From Desulfuromonadales bacterium (GTDB lineage Bacteria; Desulfobacterota; Desulfuromonadia; Desulfuromonadales; JACZKF01), in the NCBI GenBank assembly GCA_029289095.1, contig JARFUG010000002.1:50880-114879 (forward strand): 64,000 bases of DNA, given 5' to 3'. How positions within the stretch are numbered: the stretch's first letter is position 1; each line of letters starts with the position of its first letter. Below are positions 35,253-55,136 of the stretch, one piece after another. The notes beneath the pieces are model-generated. The model had not been told where the DNA came from and did not search any database. It was given only the letters and a program-made list of their open reading frames with translations. A program made the position numbers and the translations under genes.

Positions 35253-36689
35253 ATGATACGATGGTTCACCAAAGGATACGAGCGTTTGCTTCTGGGTCTG
35301 TTCGCCTTTGTTCCATTGTGGGGCATCGTTTACCTGCAGCGTTTCCAGGATCCGACCTTACGGCATGAAAGTCATTCCTTCCATGAGATCGCCGTCGGCA
35401 TCGCGATCCTCCTGGGCGGACTTGTCGCCGTCGTCACCTGGCGCTGTTATCAAGCATCGGGCGAGACGTTTTTGTACTGGCTGGCTCTGGGATTTCTCGG
35501 CTTCACCCTGATTTATCTCCCGCACGGCCTCTTCACCCGATTCACCCACCACAACATCTGGTTTTTCCTCCTCTACGGCCCGGCGTCGCGGCTCGTCATG
35601 AGCGGGCTGCTGTTCAAGGGGCTCCTCACCTACGGCCGTCCCCCCGAGCCCCCCGAGAGGCGAAAAGGTTGGCGATCCCTGCTCGCCTGGGTGATGTTTT
35701 TCGTGCTGGCCGATCTGGCCGTCGGCCTCGTTGCCTGGTCGCCAATCGCCGCAAACCCTCTGGTGCGAATGAGCATGGAAGGCGGAGCCCTTCTGCTGGC
35801 GATGGCCGGAGTCGCCGTGCTGCTGGCGCGCAGGATCGGGGCGCCTCTGATGACGATCTACGCCATCTCTCTGTTGATTTTTTCCCAGGCTTCCATTGCA
35901 TTTCTTCTTGGGCACCCATGGAATCACCAGTGGTGGCTTGCCCACCTCGTGTTCGCCTGGGGATTTCTCCTTCTGAGTTTCGGTGTCGTCAGGGCCTTCC
36001 ATTCTACGCGCTCCTTCTCCGCGGTTTACAGCCAGGAGGAAATGATGGCGCAGCTCACCCAGGCGAAGGAGCAGACGGATATCGCCCTGGCACAGCTTCA
36101 ACACGCCAACCGGGAACTGCAGAGACTGGCCGCCACAGATCCTCTGACCGGGGCCGCCAACCGGCGTCACTTTCGCGATCAGGCCCAGGTAGAGATCAGC
36201 CGGGCGAAAAGACACCATCTGCCGCTCTCTGTGCTGGCCATGGACCTGGACCACTTCAAATCGATCAATGATCGTTACGGACACCCCGCCGGGGACGAAA
36301 TACTGAAGACCTTTGTAACAGAGGTCAAAGATGTCTTGCGGCCGGGGGACCTCGTCGGGCGATTCGGCGGCGAAGAATTCATGGTCCTGCTCCCCGGTTC
36401 GACGGAGGAAGCGGCCGCCGGCGTCGCAGAGCGGTTGCGACGAGTGGTTGAGCAGATGCGGGTTGCGGTCGACGGGGATCTTCTCCAGGTCACGGTCTCC
36501 ATCGGGGTGGCCCGTCATGGTCTGGACGGCGACGCTCCCGAGGATTTGTTCAAGGTCGCAGACGAGCGGCTCTACCAGGCCAAGATGAGAGGCCGCAACC
36601 AGGTGGTCGGATTGGTTGACGCCGGTAGATCCGCAACATGGCATTCCGAAATCCTCCGTTCGATGGAGGTTTCAAGTCCGGCGGATTGA
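35253..36689 (+). CDS. Membrane-bound diguanylate cyclase (GGDEF) with an I-site
   Basis: 478 aa with about 8 N-terminal TM segments and a coiled coil. It then has RPGD-LVGRF-GGEEF, which is an RxxD I-site 5 residues before an intact GGEEF. Confidence 0.9.
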   Translation: MIRWFTKGYERLLLGLFAFVPLWGIVYLQRFQDPTLRHESHSFHEIAVGIAILLGGLVAVVTWRCYQASGETFLYWLALGFLGFTLIYLPHGLFTRFTHHNIWFFLLYGPASRLVMSGLLFKGLLTYGRPPEPPERRKGWRSLLAWVMFFVLADLAVGLVAWSPIAANPLVRMSMEGGALLLAMAGVAVLLARRIGAPLMTIYAISLLIFSQASIAFLLGHPWNHQWWLAHLVFAWGFLLLSFGVVRAFHSTRSFSAVYSQEEMMAQLTQAKEQTDIALAQLQHANRELQRLAATDPLTGAANRRHFRDQAQVEISRAKRHHLPLSVLAMDLDHFKSINDRYGHPAGDEILKTFVTEVKDVLRPGDLVGRFGGEEFMVLLPGSTEEAAAGVAERLRRVVEQMRVAVDGDLLQVTVSIGVARHGLDGDAPEDLFKVADERLYQAKMRGRNQVVGLVDAGRSATWHSEILRSMEVSSPAD

Positions 36690-45814: not shown

Positions 45815-47158
45815 CTACTTAAGAAGCAGATCCATGAACCCTCGATACGTCTTCTGCTTGCGCTCGGACTCCTCGTAGATTCTGGAGGAGAAGAGGGCTC
45901 CGGCGGCGTGCTCGGCGAGCATGGAGAAGAGCTGGTAGTCGAGGGGGTTGAAGCTCTCCTTGTGGACGAAGAGACGGTAGATGGCCAGGACGCCGATCGG
46001 CTGCTCGTGAATGCGCAAAGGGATGGCGGCAATCGGCTTCAGGGGGTCGTCCGATCCTTCGGCGACCGCGTCCTCGCTGAAAGAGCTCCGCCCCTCCTCC
46101 ACGACCTCCCTCCAAATCCCTTCGGATGCCGAAATCCTTGGAAACTCCCCGTCTCCAAACCCTTCTCCCGTCTCGAAGCGCAACTCTCCCGACTCCTGAT
46201 CGAGGGTCAGAAGGGCGAATTTCTCGGCGCCGATGAAATTGATCACGACCTCGTTGATGATGGTGGCGACCCTGCTGCGGTCAAGGACCGCATGCAGGCG
46301 GGAGGAGGCGACATAGAGGTTGGACAATACGTTGTTCACCTCTTCGATATTGATGATCTGCTCGGCAAACTCCCGGTTCTCCGATTCGAGATCGGCGATG
46401 CGACGCTTCAGGCGGGCGATTTCCTCAGAACTCTCCCGGGCATCGTTTGTGGCGGCCGGCGCCGCGGCGGGCTCCACAGCCCCTTCTTCGCGTTTCTGGC
46501 CGATGAGCCTGGCGATGATCTTCTGCCCTCGGGGATCGTGGCGAATGAAATAGACCCCCATTCCGGACTCGGCGCCTTCCTGGATCCGTTTGACGATCCC
46601 CAGCAGAGGAAGAGCCTTTCCTCCGGGGATTTCGAGCTTCATCTCCAGCACGGTTCCGATGGGGAAGATGTTCTGGGTGCCGATGAAGATGCCGGTGGTG
46701 GAGAGGTCGCGGGCATGAGCCAGGAAGCGTTTTTCCCCCGACTGAATCATGACGCGAAGCGAAAGAGCGATTCGCTCGGAGGTGCGCCTGCGCACCTTGC
46801 CGAGAACCCGTTGCACCTTTTCGATCAGTTCCCTTCTGGAGATCGGCTTGGTGATGTAATCGTCGCAACCTGCTTCGAGACACTGGCGCACCTCTTCGTC
46901 GCGCCCCGAGGACGTCACGACGATGACCGGCAGAGATTTCCAGCGCTCGCTGCTGCGCAGGCGCCGGCAGACCTCGTCCCCTCCGATTCCGCTCAGATTG
47001 AAATCGATGAGCAGAATGTCGGGTTGGACCGTCTCGAGTTGCGCGAAAACCTCTTCGCCCGACCGGGCGGTATCTACTCGATGACCGTTTCCTTCGAGGA
47101 AGAACTTCTCAAGTTCCACAAAGGAATCGGTGTTATCGGCCAGTAAAACATTTGCCAT
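45815..47158 (-). CDS. Response-regulator receiver + PilZ + coiled coil + GAF domain protein
   Basis: The start is probably MANVLLAD at 47158, with GGAG 6 nt upstream. REC has the phospho-acceptor context ILLIDFNL. The PilZ motifs are RRTSER and DLSTTG. The C-terminal domain is GAF-like. Confidence 0.8.
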   Translation of the reverse strand: MANVLLADNTDSFVELEKFFLEGNGHRVDTARSGEEVFAQLETVQPDILLIDFNLSGIGGDEVCRRLRSSERWKSLPVIVVTSSGRDEEVRQCLEAGCDDYITKPISRRELIEKVQRVLGKVRRRTSERIALSLRVMIQSGEKRFLAHARDLSTTGIFIGTQNIFPIGTVLEMKLEIPGGKALPLLGIVKRIQEGAESGMGVYFIRHDPRGQKIIARLIGQKREEGAVEPAAAPAATNDARESSEEIARLKRRIADLESENREFAEQIINIEEVNNVLSNLYVASSRLHAVLDRSRVATIINEVVINFIGAEKFALLTLDQESGELRFETGEGFGDGEFPRISASEGIWREVVEEGRSSFSEDAVAEGSDDPLKPIAAIPLRIHEQPIGVLAIYRLFVHKESFNPLDYQLFSMLAEHAAGALFSSRIYEESERKQKTYRGFMDLLLK

Positions 47159-47227
47159 TATCATCTCCATCGGCGCTTCCCCATCACTGGCCCAGGGTTT
47201 TCCCCCGGAAACCCGGTATGATGCTTT

Positions 47228-50602: not shown

Positions 50603-50631
50603 TTGACCTAAGTTTAAAATTAACTTATCTT
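50603..50631 (+). promoter_or_regulatory. Sigma-70 promoter candidate driving the riboswitch leader
   Basis: TTGACC-N17-TATCTT in an AT-rich patch. The implied transcription start is near 50638. Confidence 0.5.
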
Positions 50632-50650
50632 TAGTTTCAAATTAATTCTG

Positions 50651-50736
50651 CTTCTCCGATAAGAGCAAAACCGGAGCAATCCGGTGACGCAGAACCACGG
50701 GTCCCACGCGGACAGCCGAGTCGCCGAAGAGAGGAT
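50651..50736 (+). ncRNA. GEMM-I-like cyclic-dinucleotide riboswitch aptamer (c-di-GMP-I family; c-di-GMP versus 3',3'-cGAMP selectivity unresolved)
   Basis: The sequence GAGCAAAACC-GGAGCAAUCCGG-UGACGCAGAACC-ACGGGUCCCACGCGGACAGCCGAGUCGCC matches the remembered GEMM-I pattern: GCAAACC, then hairpin 1, then GACGCAAAGCC, then hairpin 2, then CAGCCGGGUUACC. An intrinsic terminator follows. Confidence 0.7.
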
Positions 50737-50765
50737 CCAGCTTTCACCACAAGAAAAGCTGAAGG

Positions 50766-50795
50766 CCCATCTTCGCCCTTGAAGATGGGTTTTTT
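50766..50795 (+). terminator. Intrinsic terminator (riboswitch expression platform)
   Basis: CCCATCTTC-gccct(t)-GAAGATGGG followed by TTTTTT, about 78 nt before the LuxR-family gene ATG. Confidence 0.85.
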
Positions 50796-50872
50796 CGTTT
50801 CTTCATGAACGGCGCACGTGAAACAGACCTCTTGCTACGATTTCACCAGCCGTGTTCTCTGGAGGGGAAACG

Positions 50873-51511
50873 ATGAAGATCACTCTGGTACTTGCGGACG
50901 GACACCCGCTCTTTCTCGACGGGCTCGAACGCTTCTGCGCGCAGCAGGAGGATTTCGAAGCGGTGGCGCGCTGCCTCACCGGCGAAGAAACGCTTCAGGC
51001 CATTCTTCGCCACGGCCCCGACATTCTCGTCCTCGACAACGCCTTGGGGGGTATGAAGGGATTTGAGCTTCTCAAAAGGCTTCGTCACTCAGAGGTGCCG
51101 ACGCGGGCGATTCTTCTCACAGACGTTCTCGACGATGAAACGGCGATGGAGGCGATCCGCCTGGGCGTGCGCGGAGCGGTGCTGAAAAATATGCCTCCAG
51201 AGCGCCTCGCCCAGTGCATCCGTAAGGTGCATTCGGGGGGAAAATGGCTGGAGCTTGACTCACTCAGCCGCGCTGTCGAGAAGCTGCTGCACCGCGAAGC
51301 CGGAGTCCGTCGCATCTCCACCATCCTCACTCCCCGGGAGATCGAGATCGTGCGCCTCGTCGCCAGGGGGATGAGCAACCGCGAGATCGGCGCCAATCTT
51401 CTGATCACCGAGGGGACGGTGAAGATCCACCTGCACAACATCTACAAAAAGCTCGGCATCGACAACCGGGTCGACCTGACGCTGTACGCCCAGAAGAAGG
51501 GGGTCGCCTAA
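50873..51511 (+). CDS. LuxR/NarL-family two-component response regulator
   Basis: ORF trimmed to MKITLVLADGHPLF at 50873, with GGAGGGG upstream. It has a REC domain and a C-terminal HTH, LTPREIEIVRLVARGMSNREIGANLLITEGTVKIHLHNIYKKLG. Confidence 0.9.
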   Translation: MKITLVLADGHPLFLDGLERFCAQQEDFEAVARCLTGEETLQAILRHGPDILVLDNALGGMKGFELLKRLRHSEVPTRAILLTDVLDDETAMEAIRLGVRGAVLKNMPPERLAQCIRKVHSGGKWLELDSLSRAVEKLLHREAGVRRISTILTPREIEIVRLVARGMSNREIGANLLITEGTVKIHLHNIYKKLGIDNRVDLTLYAQKKGVA

Positions 51512-51519
51512 AATCGCCT

Positions 51520-51586
51520 GAGAGACGAAGAGGCCCTCGCGGGCCCCTTCGTCTCTCAGTAAGCAGTCCCCCTTTTATAAAGGGGG
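51520..51586. terminator. Two stem-loops between convergent transcription units
   Basis: The first is GAGAGACGAAGAGGCCC-tcgc-GGGCCCCTTCGTCTCTC, a 17-bp stem with 1 mismatch. The second is CCCCCTTT-tat-AAAGGGGG. Confidence 0.65.
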
Positions 51587-51921: not shown

Positions 51922-52845
51922 TCAAGGAATCACTGGGTCGGCCGGGGTCCCGCTGAGCGGACAGCCGAGTTCGTTGGCTTCTTCGAACTCATCTTTGGTT
52001 GCTTCTATAGTGCCGTTCGCAACGGCACCCTGCACCATCTGAATAACCTCATCCACCGTATAGGGATAGTTGACAAATTGTCCGTTAGACCCGTCCAGCT
52101 TTGCGTAGGCGTTCAAGAGTGCGGCCGTGGCATGGCGAGCAAGTGCGTCGACGCCGCCCCCCCCGAGCCAAATAGCCTGTCCCAAAGTGATATTCGGATT
52201 GAAAAGGTCTACGTCAAAAGTTGCATCGAAGTCATCGCCGGGATCCACACCGACCCAGCGGTCGGCATGATTTCTCCAGTACCCCGGCGTGCAGCCCTGG
52301 TCACCTTCGGGGACATCGGGCATGTAACAGACGTTGTAATGGCTGATCGTGGGAATATTTCCCCCTTTGTTCGTAGGGGAGAAAAGGGCCTTGTCCCAAT
52401 CAAAACCGGTTCCGACATAGTCGAAGACATAGAAATTAGGGCCACCCTTCACGATGACGGCAAGTACTGTAGAATTGGCGCTTTCCCAATCCAGATACTT
52501 ACCATCGCTGGAGAGAGTAAATGAAACATAGGCATTGCTGAAGTTTGCTGGAGGATCGATTTTGAAGCCGCGCATCTCTTCGGTGACTTCTCCGATGATC
52601 TCCAGCGCCTCCATGTCGTAACAGACCTGGTCGTCATCGGAGGAGACGAAATTGCCCGAATAAGCTGTCGGTAAAATGCCCCGCTCTGTCGCCATAGTCG
52701 AGACCCCCGATGGTCCCTTTGCAGACTGCACCGAGATCTCGGCAGTCGGCTCACTGCCCGATCCGCCCCCACAGCCGGCGATGAAGGATGACACCCCCAG
52801 AGCGAGGATGGCTGACAGTGCGATGAACGTCTTCTGTCGTGTCAT
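51922..52845 (-). CDS. Secreted lipoprotein of unknown function
   Basis: 307 aa with the lipobox FIAGC followed by GGGSGS. The Cys-containing motif is CTPGYWRNHADRW. The C-terminal part is helical and ends ELGCPL. GGGAG lies 7 nt upstream of the ATG. The gene sits in lower-GC surroundings. Confidence 0.7.
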   Translation of the reverse strand: MTRQKTFIALSAILALGVSSFIAGCGGGSGSEPTAEISVQSAKGPSGVSTMATERGILPTAYSGNFVSSDDDQVCYDMEALEIIGEVTEEMRGFKIDPPANFSNAYVSFTLSSDGKYLDWESANSTVLAVIVKGGPNFYVFDYVGTGFDWDKALFSPTNKGGNIPTISHYNVCYMPDVPEGDQGCTPGYWRNHADRWVGVDPGDDFDATFDVDLFNPNITLGQAIWLGGGGVDALARHATAALLNAYAKLDGSNGQFVNYPYTVDEVIQMVQGAVANGTIEATKDEFEEANELGCPLSGTPADPVIP

Positions 52846-53240: not shown

Positions 53241-54017
53241 TTATTTTTTTCGTTGGTCGTGTGGGACGATTACCGGAACAGTAGCCACTCCACCGTCTTG
53301 GGTTTCGATCTTGATCGTATACAGCCGGCCATCCAAGTCATCGCCACGGCGCGACGCCTCCAGATAGACTTGGAAATTGAAAGTTCCCGACGTCAGGCCG
53401 ATCTCGATCGGATCATTGGTTGAGAGTTCACCGTACTCGTCCACGATAGAGTAACTGGTTCCAGGCAACGTGCAGTTGTCCTGCAGAATGATGCTGCCCG
53501 AAACTGTGATTTCCGCCATCTTTCCATTGGGGGGCCAGAGGGAAGATGGTGACGCAGACACCTCTACGGTCGGAGCTCCAGCACAAGCAGCAGCCCAAAT
53601 TACTTCAGCTATGGCAATATCTGAAAACTCACTCAGATTGTTGTTGATCGGCGGTGCGTTGCACCTTGCCTGAAGTTTATAGGTATAGACATCATTCGCG
53701 AGAGCTTCATCAAAATACTCAATGGAGCCCGCTGTTACCGAGCTGATCTGATCGTATGCATCGCCGCCGCTGGCCTTGCGGTAAATACGAATTTCCCTGC
53801 CGTGTGTGCAATTTGCCGGGAAATTCGAGGCCGGATATGCATCCCAGACAAGTAGAACATCCGAGCCGAAATCGGTCGCTTCAAGGCCGGTTGGCGCCGC
53901 ATAGCCACTGAGAGAGCCATGATCCGGTTGGGCGGCATGGGCTGGCATTCCAAAACTCGTTGCAAAGAAAACTGCAAAGAACGATAGTGCAACAAAAACT
54001 TTGTACCTTTTCATCAC
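53241..54017 (-). CDS. Secreted two-domain beta-sandwich protein (FN3-like N-domain, Ig-like C-domain)
   Basis: 258 aa with a signal peptide ending PAHA-AQ. The N-domain has LLVWDAYP...YTYKLQARC. The C-domain has SLWPPNGKMAEITVSG...GRLYTIKIETQDGGV, a motif I recall from bacterial surface Ig-like domains. Confidence 0.65.
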   Translation of the reverse strand: MMKRYKVFVALSFFAVFFATSFGMPAHAAQPDHGSLSGYAAPTGLEATDFGSDVLLVWDAYPASNFPANCTHGREIRIYRKASGGDAYDQISSVTAGSIEYFDEALANDVYTYKLQARCNAPPINNNLSEFSDIAIAEVIWAAACAGAPTVEVSASPSSLWPPNGKMAEITVSGSIILQDNCTLPGTSYSIVDEYGELSTNDPIEIGLTSGTFNFQVYLEASRRGDDLDGRLYTIKIETQDGGVATVPVIVPHDQRKK

Positions 54018-54257: not shown

Positions 54258-55136
54258 TCAGTAATACACCTTCTGGTTCCCCTTCTTCTCGTAGACGAAC
54301 CGCAGCGTCCGCTTCACCCGCGCCACAAGTCTCACCTGGTTGATCGGCTTGGGAATGAAATCGAAATAGCCCATATCGAGGGCCCTGGCTTCGTCTTCGG
54401 GAGTCGATTTGGCGGAAAAGGCGATGACCGGAATGTCGCACGTCGCCGGATTACCCCTGAGATTGCGCAACATCTGGTGCCCGTCCATCTGGGGCATGAG
54501 GATGTCGGCGACGATGAGGTGGGGAAGCGTCTTCAGGGCGACCTTCAGCCCCTCGGTCCCGTTGATCGCTTCGGTCACATCGCAGTCTTCACGGCGCAGA
54601 GCCGCGGCGACGGCGGCCCGCACCAATTCGTGATCGTCGACGACCAGCACCGACCATCGACCCCCTCCGAGGAGTTTCTCCTGCAGATGCTCTTCGCCCA
54701 GATAGTGCTGCCTGACCGCCTCCTGAATCTCGAAAGAGGTGGTGACGCAGGGCACGATGCGCAAACCCGTCCGAAAGGAGATGCTGTCGAGGGCGCCGAT
54801 GTCGAGCGGATTCACCATGGCGAGGTAAAGGGTCTTTTCCTCCATCTTGAGGGGAAAAATGGACTTCTTGAGCGCTTCGGTCTCGGGGATGAGTTTGAGA
54901 AGATCCTTCGAGAAGGAATGGCGCGCGATACCGCTGACGGTCCGGTAGCCGAACTGCCGCGAGAGGGCGACCGCGATATCCTTCTGTGAGACGATCCCCA
55001 TCTCTTCAAGGACTTCGCCGAGCGCCTTTCCCGGCTCCTCCTTCTGGGTCAGCAGAGCTTTGTTCAACGACTCTTCGTCGATCACTCCGGCATCGATCAG
55101 AATTTCACCGAATCTCTTGCGCCTGGTCATATTCAT
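54258..55136 (-). CDS. MshEN (GspE/T2SSE N-terminal, c-di-GMP-binding type) domain fused to a response-regulator receiver
   Basis: 292 aa. The N-terminus has RFGEILIDAGVIDEESLNKALLTQ and ALGEVLEEMGIVSQKDIAVALSRQ. Both fit the tandem 24-residue MshEN motif RLGxx(LVI)(LVI)xxG(LVI)(LVI)xxxxLxxxLxxQ. The C-terminal REC has VLVVDDHE, ADILMPQMDG and IAFSAK. Confidence 0.8.
   Translation of the reverse strand: MNMTRRKRFGEILIDAGVIDEESLNKALLTQKEEPGKALGEVLEEMGIVSQKDIAVALSRQFGYRTVSGIARHSFSKDLLKLIPETEALKKSIFPLKMEEKTLYLAMVNPLDIGALDSISFRTGLRIVPCVTTSFEIQEAVRQHYLGEEHLQEKLLGGGRWSVLVVDDHELVRAAVAAALRREDCDVTEAINGTEGLKVALKTLPHLIVADILMPQMDGHQMLRNLRGNPATCDIPVIAFSAKSTPEDEARALDMGYFDFIPKPINQVRLVARVKRTLRFVYEKKGNQKVYY

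Follow-up and report, generated by a model that had tools for sequence, protein, structure and literature searches.

Organisation of the locus

We describe here an RNA leader and the gene that follows it on contig JARFUG010000002.1 of a Desulfuromonadales bacterium, within a stretch of 64,000 nucleotides (nt) that is hereafter called the window and is numbered from its first letter. From 5' to 3' on the plus strand, this unit comprises a sigma-70-like promoter, an aptamer of the GEMM-I (c-di-GMP-I) family, a middle hairpin, an intrinsic terminator, a Shine-Dalgarno sequence and a gene encoding a NarL/FixJ-type response regulator. An initial annotation, made by reading the letters alone, had proposed a promoter TTGACC-N17-TATCTT, a GEMM-I-like aptamer with two hairpins, a clean intrinsic terminator and a LuxR-family response regulator downstream, and each of these was recovered in our analysis. 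It is probable that the leader is a GEMM-I-fold riboswitch for a cyclic dinucleotide, with an adenine at the position of G20 in the Vibrio cholerae aptamer Vc2, and that it works as a transcriptional OFF switch for this orphan regulator.

The regulator gene (50873-51511, plus strand) encodes 212 residues with a REC domain (PF00072, residues 6-116, E = 2.6e-18) and a GerE/LuxR helix-turn-helix (HTH; PF00196, residues 151-206, E = 4.3e-19). The receiver residues conserved in the family alignment are the Asp of DILVLD (i.e. the phospho-acceptor), the Thr of LLTD and the Lys of VLK. The gene forms a monocistronic unit, the next genes lying on the opposite strand, and no histidine kinase is encoded beside it. 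Its ATG start (50873) follows a Shine-Dalgarno motif GGAGGGG (50861-50867; whole feature 50861-50875), and the sequence GGAGGGGAAACGATG of this region is identical across all three orthologues, i.e. the window and the two closest relatives presented below (L001 and L081).

The promoter (50603-50631, plus strand) consists of a -35 hexamer TTGACC (50603-50608), a 17-nt spacer and a -10 hexamer TATCTT (50626-50631). The hexamers match the consensus at nine of 12 positions, and a consensus scan yielded 2 promoter-like sites when 0.2 were expected from shuffled sequences. The spacer diverges among the orthologous leaders, but both hexamers are kept: L001 has TTGACC/TATTCT and L081 has TTTACA/TATCTT. 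From this promoter we infer a transcription start near 50638. None of 200 dinucleotide shuffles of the resulting 161-nt leader reaches its folding stability (z = -3.4).

Family membership and three-helix fold

A covariance-model search, which the initial annotation had suggested as a check, returned a single Rfam match above gathering score in the whole 64-kb window, namely RF01051 (c-di-GMP-I/GEMM-I, clan CL00126) at 50654-50728 on the plus strand. Its score of 53.0 bits exceeds the gathering threshold of 35, with an E-value of 1.6e-7 when the window is searched as a whole, and the match ran through the model from end to end (model positions 1-87).

Close relatives of the response regulator are confined to a narrow group. 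Four relatives were considered together with the window. The orthologue L001, from a Desulfuromonadales metagenome-assembled genome, has a 75 % identical regulator protein and the same cupin-then-regulator gene order; the orthologue L081, a metagenome contig of 1.8 kb, has a 72 % identical regulator. Both carry the riboswitch (50.0 and 51.4 bits with RF01051, respectively). When metagenomes were scanned for the pattern of the conserved core, two further, paralogue-type copies came up on contigs of one sample, L091:98-177 and L092:1724-1800 (53.9 and 49.6 bits). In addition, L081 bears a second GEMM-I aptamer (L081:1482-1569, 68.1 bits) with G20 and a full-length P3, directly downstream of the regulator and upstream of the next gene; Rfam scans of the window detected no second aptamer after the regulator gene.

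An alignment of seven sequences (A1) was built from the five members of what we call here the subfamily (window, L001, the first L081 copy or L081a, L091 and L092), the Geobacter aptamer Gm0970 and the canonical second copy of L081 (L081b). The Gm0970 sequence was taken from the supplement of bioRxiv 10.64898/2026.01.30.702909, where its two copies differ by one A in the junction J1/2; we chose the version with a 6-nt J1/2, which agrees with the junction length of the Geobacter aptamer Gs1761. Over A1, 96.3 % of the cells of the P1/P2/P3 structure are paired (24 pairs, 12 of which are changed on both sides). None of 500 shuffles reached this value, and slid pairing partners gave 32-45 %. The RNA is thus a GEMM-I aptamer folded as a three-helix junction, its family being borne out by both the model match and the covariation.

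Positions were assigned on the crystal architecture of Gs1761 (P1 G1-G8/C76-G84, J1/2 A9-A14, P2 C15-G40, J2/3 A41, P3 A42-U73, J1/3 G74-C75; PMC6274999). The 5' strand of P1, UUCUCCG, occupies 50652-50658, and its last nucleotide, G50658, is the equivalent of G8 in the uppermost pair of P1, the one stacked beneath the G-beta of the ligand (PMC6274999). The P1 pairs are 94.7 % paired in A1, with U.G to C-G changes among them. Their 3' partner begins at C50725 (C76 of Gs1761) and belongs to a strand CGAAGAGAGG (50725-50734), hereafter the switching strand, which is invariant in the three orthologues and can serve either as the P1 3' strand or as the 5' half of an antiterminator. This register of P1 was preferred because it fits the crystal architecture (G8-C76) and the covariation. 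The register found in the thermodynamic minimum-free-energy (MFE) fold, CGAU with GUCG, was rejected, as it would break the base of P3 and bury C50724. Another register, CUUCUC/GAGAGG, may arise from the repetitive tail; it uses the same switching strand and would leave the model unchanged.

The junction J1/2, AUAAGA (50659-50664), was located by the Rfam alignment, A1 and the Gs1761 architecture, in which it matches A9-A14; A50659, A50661 and A50662 map to A9, A11 and A12. P2 (50665-50690) is closed by G50665-C50690 and C50666-G50689. Its hairpin ACCGGA-GCAA-UCCGGU (50670-50685), the first of the two in the initial annotation, is capped by a GNRA tetraloop (GCAA, 50676-50679) and shows compensatory changes at all six stem pairs in A1. 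The single adenine of J2/3, A50691, corresponds to Vc2 A47 and Gs1761 A41 and lies in an invariant column of A1.

P3 (50692-50722) is compact, with G50692-C50722, A50693-U50721 and C50695-G50720 at its base, followed by CGG/CCG, GUCC/GGAC and the loop CACGC; the second hairpin of the initial annotation, CGGGUCC-CACGC-GGACAGCCG, lies within it at 50698-50718. Its first pair (A1 columns 43/87) is G-C in the window and A-U in Gm0970 and L081b, i.e. a compensatory change, and the distal stem covaries in L091 and L092. P3 is truncated, having 6 nt in place of 18 of the model, as in the compact Geobacter forms; a receptor for the P2 tetraloop is not identifiable in P3 from the sequence. Finally, J1/3 consists of G50723 and C50724 (G74-C75 of Gs1761), the latter being the equivalent of Vc2 C92 and Gs1761 C75 and invariant in A1.

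Conservation follows this structure. For the aptamer with its 3' tail, identity with the two orthologues amounts to 96.6 % and 94.3 %, compared with 77-78 % in the coding DNA and about 60 % in the unstructured part of the leader.

Binding pocket and predicted ligand

The position that discriminates between cyclic dinucleotides, which the initial annotation could not read by eye and had left to an alignment, is A50664 (Vc2 G20, Gs1761 A14; RF01051 model position 11, A1 column 15). This column holds A in the window, L001, L081a, L091, L092 and Gm0970, and G in the canonical L081b. At position 20 of Vc2, G recognises the first guanine of cyclic di-GMP (c-di-GMP) and A recognises the adenine of cGAMP (3',3'-cyclic GMP-AMP), and the substitution of G20 by A defines the GEMM-Ib class (PMC6140456). 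The window RNA thus lacks the guanine of the c-di-GMP-selective Vc2-type aptamers and has the GEMM-Ib (3',3'-cGAMP) state, together with the intercalating adenine (A50691) and the Watson-Crick cytosine (C50724). The remaining contact residues agree with Gs1761, the exceptions being the P2 closing pair and the first pair of P3. In L081, J1/2 is ACAAUA, identical to that of Gm0970, a validated cGAMP sensor reported to be about 1600-fold selective for this ligand.

An A at position 20 is, by itself, insufficient proof of cGAMP selectivity. What we predict with fair confidence is that the RNA binds 3',3'-cGAMP, and this prediction does not extend to selectivity against c-di-GMP. It is restricted in this way because A20 tolerates c-di-GMP, which A20 aptamers still bind through a protonated adenine (PMC6140456), and because the P2 closing pair is Vc2-like.

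Terminator, antiterminator and order of folding

The intrinsic terminator (50761-50795, plus strand; 50761-50794 in the terminator scan) has a 14-pair stem, a 6-nt loop and a tract of six U (50790-50795), with a folding energy of -19.5 kcal/mol. In its core stem, CCCAUCUUC/GAAGAUGGG, C50766-C50774 pair with G50781-G50789. Between aptamer and terminator lies the middle hairpin CAGCUUU...AAAGCUG (50738-50761); a hairpin of differing sequence occupies the same position in L001, L081, L091 and L092. The terminator begins 36 nt past the aptamer and shares no nucleotide with it, and in the full-length MFE fold aptamer, middle hairpin and terminator coexist.

The initial annotation had noticed that GCCGAAGA (50723-50730), on the 3' side of the aptamer, is complementary at seven of eight positions to UCUUCGCC (50770-50777) in the 5' arm of the terminator. 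This count is exact, with C50724/C50776 as the lone mismatch. Both constrained and free folds identified the 5' arm (50766-50775) as the 3' half of an antiterminator helix, in which C50725-A50730 pair with U50770-G50775 and G50733/G50734 with C50767/C50766, enclosing the middle hairpin.

Growing transcripts were folded stepwise, and the decision length was defined as that at which the 5' arm of the terminator has emerged and the 3' arm has not. At this length the antiterminator was the MFE structure in four of the five leaders (window, L081, L091 and L092). These four passed through three stages, i.e. the aptamer with P1, then the antiterminator, then the aptamer with the terminator at full length. 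The P1 and antiterminator states at the decision length are nearly isoenergetic, -4.7 to +1.9 kcal/mol apart (the value of L081, -3.9 kcal/mol, comes from stepwise folding and those of the other leaders from constrained folds), so the binding energy of a ligand could decide between them. To reach the terminator fold from the ligand-free fold of the decision length, a direct path would have to cross a barrier roughly estimated at 7.5-19 kcal/mol.

The core of the 5' arm, UCUUCG, is invariant in the three orthologues and its 3' partner in the terminator varies (GAAGAU, GAAGAC and GAGGAU), a pattern that would fit an arm held by two partners. The terminators of L091 and L092 differ in sequence, but each keeps a 5' arm that can pair with the conserved tail (duplex energies of -12.5 and -13.0 kcal/mol).

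Two GEMM-I riboswitches illustrate the two known layouts. In the OFF switch Cd1, aptamer and terminator coexist and an antiterminator competes with both; in the cGAMP-responsive ON switch of pilM, aptamer and terminator are mutually exclusive (PMC9262584). The window leader has the structural features of a transcriptional OFF riboswitch, i.e. a terminator that can form beside the folded aptamer and a 3' strand of P1 that can pair with the 5' arm of that terminator. The proposal of the initial annotation that ligand binding favours termination is supported by this coexistence, by the transient antiterminator in four of the five leaders and by the retained complementarity of arm and tail.

Distribution among relatives and genomic neighbourhood

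The L091 and L092 riboswitches share with the window A20, the sequence GACGCAGAACC, the tail CGAAGAG and an OFF-type layout. That of L091 precedes a sigma-54-type response regulator (REC, AAA+ and HTH, judged from the translation) and that of L092 a PgaC-like family-2 glycosyltransferase (judged from sequence motifs in the translation).

In orthologues with 61-64 % identity and the same neighbourhood (alcohol dehydrogenases, cupin, regulator, PilZ and ClpB), no GEMM-I match was obtained, and the intergenic regions are short and unrelated. Likewise, no riboswitch lies upstream of the regulator in the homologues L002-L013 (Gemmatimonadota, Rokubacteria and other phyla). In the intergenic region of one 62 %-identical orthologue with cupin-regulator order (L087:2849-3003), CCGACAAGAG is followed about 25 nt further on by CCGAGTCG, and these fragments correspond to the two edges of the aptamer, 5' and 3'. 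They may represent a riboswitch whose middle was deleted, though the alignment is indecisive.

At the 3' end of the regulator gene, folding revealed two hairpins that mark the end of the transcription unit (51517-51586). The first, a perfect hairpin of about 19 bp (51517-51560), starts six bases past the stop codon and has no U-tract; it also matches microRNA-precursor models on both strands, purely by shape. The second is a palindrome after 51560 (CCCCCUUUUAUAAAGGGGG/CCCCCTTTTATAAAGGGGG). No U-tract terminator was called at 51517-51586.

Beyond these hairpins, two minus-strand genes (51922-52845 and 53241-54017) run convergently with the regulator. Their products, of 307 and 258 residues, have no Pfam match and are probable secreted proteins or lipoproteins; the orthologous loci have an unannotated protein at this place. 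The riboswitch unit is flanked by genes for two response regulators with c-di-GMP receptor domains, a REC-PilZ-GAF protein (45815-47170, minus strand) and an MshEN-REC protein (54258-55136, minus strand), and at the loci L082-L086 one or two small PilZ genes stand next to the orthologous regulator. The neighbourhood is thus consistently tied to cyclic-dinucleotide signalling.

The sole GGDEF protein of the window is membrane-bound (35253-36689, plus strand) and contains GGEEF, a correctly spaced RxxD I-site and GHPAGD. Its identity as a Hypr GGDEF enzyme was ruled out by an Asp at the position that is Ser/Thr in the cGAMP-making Hypr enzymes, so it is a canonical diguanylate cyclase.

Proposed mechanism and alternative explanations

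In the mechanism that we propose, the RNA would start near 50638 from the promoter at 50603-50631, and the aptamer (50652-50734) would fold as a three-helix junction. The ligand, most likely 3',3'-cGAMP with a possible cross-reaction to c-di-GMP, would contact A50664 (A-alpha), A50691 (intercalation between the bases of the ligand) and C50724 (G-beta). Once bound, it would lock P1 and bar the switching strand from any other pairing; the terminator could then form, and transcription would halt ahead of the gene. When no ligand is bound, P1 would be weak and the switching strand would pair with the 5' arm of the terminator (50766-50775) as soon as this is made, enclosing the middle hairpin. The antiterminator might thereby delay the terminator until RNA polymerase has read past it into the regulator gene. 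Of this scheme, the family and fold of the RNA, its pocket nucleotides, the competing helices with their conservation and the identity of the gene are shown, whereas the ligand, the direction of the switch and its kinetic control are inferred.

Several observations weigh against this mechanism. At equilibrium the antiterminator lies about 10 kcal/mol above the terminator fold, also when no ligand is present, so that the switch would work only under kinetic control. L001 retains P1 throughout, and in this leader the antiterminator is not the MFE structure at any length. The shuffle test of the complementarity of tail and arm is weak at single loci, where the fraction of shuffles reaching the observed value is 0.0015-0.11; its power is low because the tail is rich in purines and the arm in pyrimidines, so that many orders of their bases would pair. 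Covariation between the two is absent from the three orthologues, in which neither tail nor arm varies. As regards the ligand, the P2 closing pair G50665-C50690 has the orientation of c-di-GMP sensors, and the window encodes no cGAMP synthase within its 64 kb. The two remaining points, the behaviour of other A20 aptamers and that of the Geobacter genes, belong to the alternatives considered next.

The most serious alternative keeps the RNA and its OFF logic as described and takes c-di-GMP, or both dinucleotides, as the ligand, A50664 providing no useful discrimination. We regard it as possible but the less probable account of the pocket. A20 in a Vc2-like pocket is known to bind both ligands, in Vc2-G20A (with roughly equal affinities, 53 nM for c-di-GMP and 120 nM for cGAMP) as in Cbe 1-2, and even Gs1761 accommodates c-di-GMP through the protonated adenine (PMC6140456). 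The G-C closing pair of P2 points in the same direction, being like that of Vc2 and unlike the C-G of Gm0970 (C-G/U.G) and Gs1761 (C15-G40), as do the PilZ and MshEN domains encoded nearby and the canonical GGDEF cyclase of the window; moreover, a response to both ligands has been reported for one riboswitch of G. sulfurreducens (Geobacter sulfurreducens), that upstream of omcST. What speaks for discrimination is that all five subfamily members retain A at position 20 across three gene contexts, that L081a has the J1/2 of the highly selective Gm0970, and that the A20 copy of L081 shares its 1.8-kb contig with a canonical G20 copy, which argues that the lineage keeps two classes with distinct ligands.

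A switch of the opposite direction, in which the ligand promotes read-through as in the Geobacter GEMM-Ib elements, would agree with precedent: both pilM/Gm0970 and Gs1761 are ON switches, and the 13 GEMM-Ib genes of G. sulfurreducens (encoding cytochromes, lipoproteins, pilus proteins and hypothetical proteins) all behave as ON, their expression falling when the cGAMP synthase gene gacA is deleted. Such a design needs an aptamer and a terminator that exclude each other, however, and here the two are 36 nt apart and coexist in the MFE fold. Furthermore, the competitor for the 5' arm of the terminator is the P1 3' strand, so that a stabilised P1 frees the terminator. We therefore hold an ON switch to be improbable at this locus.

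It is very doubtful that the aptamer no longer responds to a ligand, the leader being a constitutive attenuator or its terminator belonging to the upstream cupin gene. The equilibrium preference for the terminator, with or without P1, and the more distant orthologues that do without the element would be in keeping with this idea, against which stand a 94-97 % conserved aptamer beside a flanking leader at about 60 % and ligand-contact positions that are all intact; since the promoter is placed downstream of the cupin stop codon (50568) and ahead of the aptamer, the terminator is part of the transcript of the response regulator. Membership of the variant family c-di-GMP-I-GGC (RF03167), with an altered pocket and another ligand, is barely credible: this model came top of the clan under permissive thresholds (55.8 bits versus 53.0 for RF01051), but its score is under the family gathering score of 59 and is explained by the common compact P3 and the inclusion of P1 in the model, and its consensus has G both at the position-20 equivalent and directly after GACGC, where the window has A.

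Returning to the cyclic-dinucleotide OFF switch before the orphan regulator, we advance a broader reading more tentatively. The window RNA and its four relatives may form a GEMM-Ib-like subfamily of uncultured Desulfuromonadales, recognisable by A20, the G-C closing pair of P2 and GACGCAGAACC, that would be cGAMP-selective and OFF-wired, the first of this polarity for cGAMP, and would repress NarL-type and sigma-54-type response regulators and a PgaC-like exopolysaccharide synthase. If so, cGAMP would, besides switching electron-transfer genes on, actively turn off one part of a programme of two-component regulation and biofilm formation.

Significance and comparison with known systems

The cGAMP riboswitches have been characterised almost solely in Geobacter, where they act as ON switches of the genes of extracellular electron transfer, pili and the envelope. 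No OFF-type cGAMP riboswitch was described in the literature that we searched, the two founding papers of the family lying outside that search. If our interpretation holds, the regulon would be extended to the opposite polarity, with the signal repressing a gene, and a second messenger would be placed above a phosphorelay transcription factor, setting the amount of response regulator available for phosphorylation. Should the RNA sense c-di-GMP or both dinucleotides, it would be one more GEMM-I OFF switch. Two features of this GEMM-I member stand out. One is a pocket that is Vc2-like apart from A20 and so offers a natural case in which to study determinants of selectivity beyond position 20; the other is an OFF platform before an orphan response regulator.

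The closest structural counterparts are the Geobacter aptamers Gs1761 (pgcA, PDB 4YAZ) and Gm0970 (pilM). Like them, the window RNA has a three-helix junction with a compact P3, A20, a J1/2 of the form A-x-A-A-x-A, a single-A J2/3, a G-C J1/3 with the Watson-Crick C, CGAA opening the P1 3' strand, and a host among the Desulfuromonadales. It departs from them in the closing pairs of P2 (G-C/C-G versus C-G/U.G) and the first pair of P3 (G-C versus A-U), in its OFF-type platform and in its target, a two-component transcription factor instead of cytochrome, pilus and envelope genes.

In its platform, the window RNA resembles the c-di-GMP OFF switch Cd1 of the Clostridioides difficile flgB operon, where aptamer and terminator also coexist and the antiterminator is likewise formed by the 3' aptamer strand and the 5' arm of the terminator. 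The Cd1 antiterminator sequesters the region of the ligand-pairing C (PMC9262584); that of the window starts one nucleotide past C50724. Cd1 differs by its G at the selectivity position, its ligand and its lack of a detectable P1 (6-7 bp in the window), as well as by host phylum and regulated genes.

With Vc2, located upstream of VC1722/tfoY, the window RNA shares the GEMM-I fold, the G-C closing pair of P2 and the equivalents of A47 and C92. Vc2 likewise controls a transcription regulator; it acts on translation, however, and has a long P3 with a tetraloop receptor. The pocket of Vc2-G20A has the same composition as that of the window at positions 20, 21, 46, 47 and 92, this being an engineered RNA that binds both ligands. 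The compact architecture of RF03167 is also similar, with a signature of G/G/C versus A/A/C in the window.

The initial annotation had regarded a transcription factor as an unusual target for such a riboswitch in relatives of Geobacter. The regulated gene does encode a transcription factor, but the case is not unprecedented: the GEMM-Ib riboswitch GSUR3013 of G. sulfurreducens, upstream of GSU2033 and pilMNOP, has a transcription regulator as its first downstream gene, so that control of a transcription factor is not new in kind. GSU2033 encodes a small protein of the XRE family, is transcribed together with pilus genes and is switched ON by cGAMP, whereas the target in the window is a lone REC-LuxR regulator behind a leader of OFF design.

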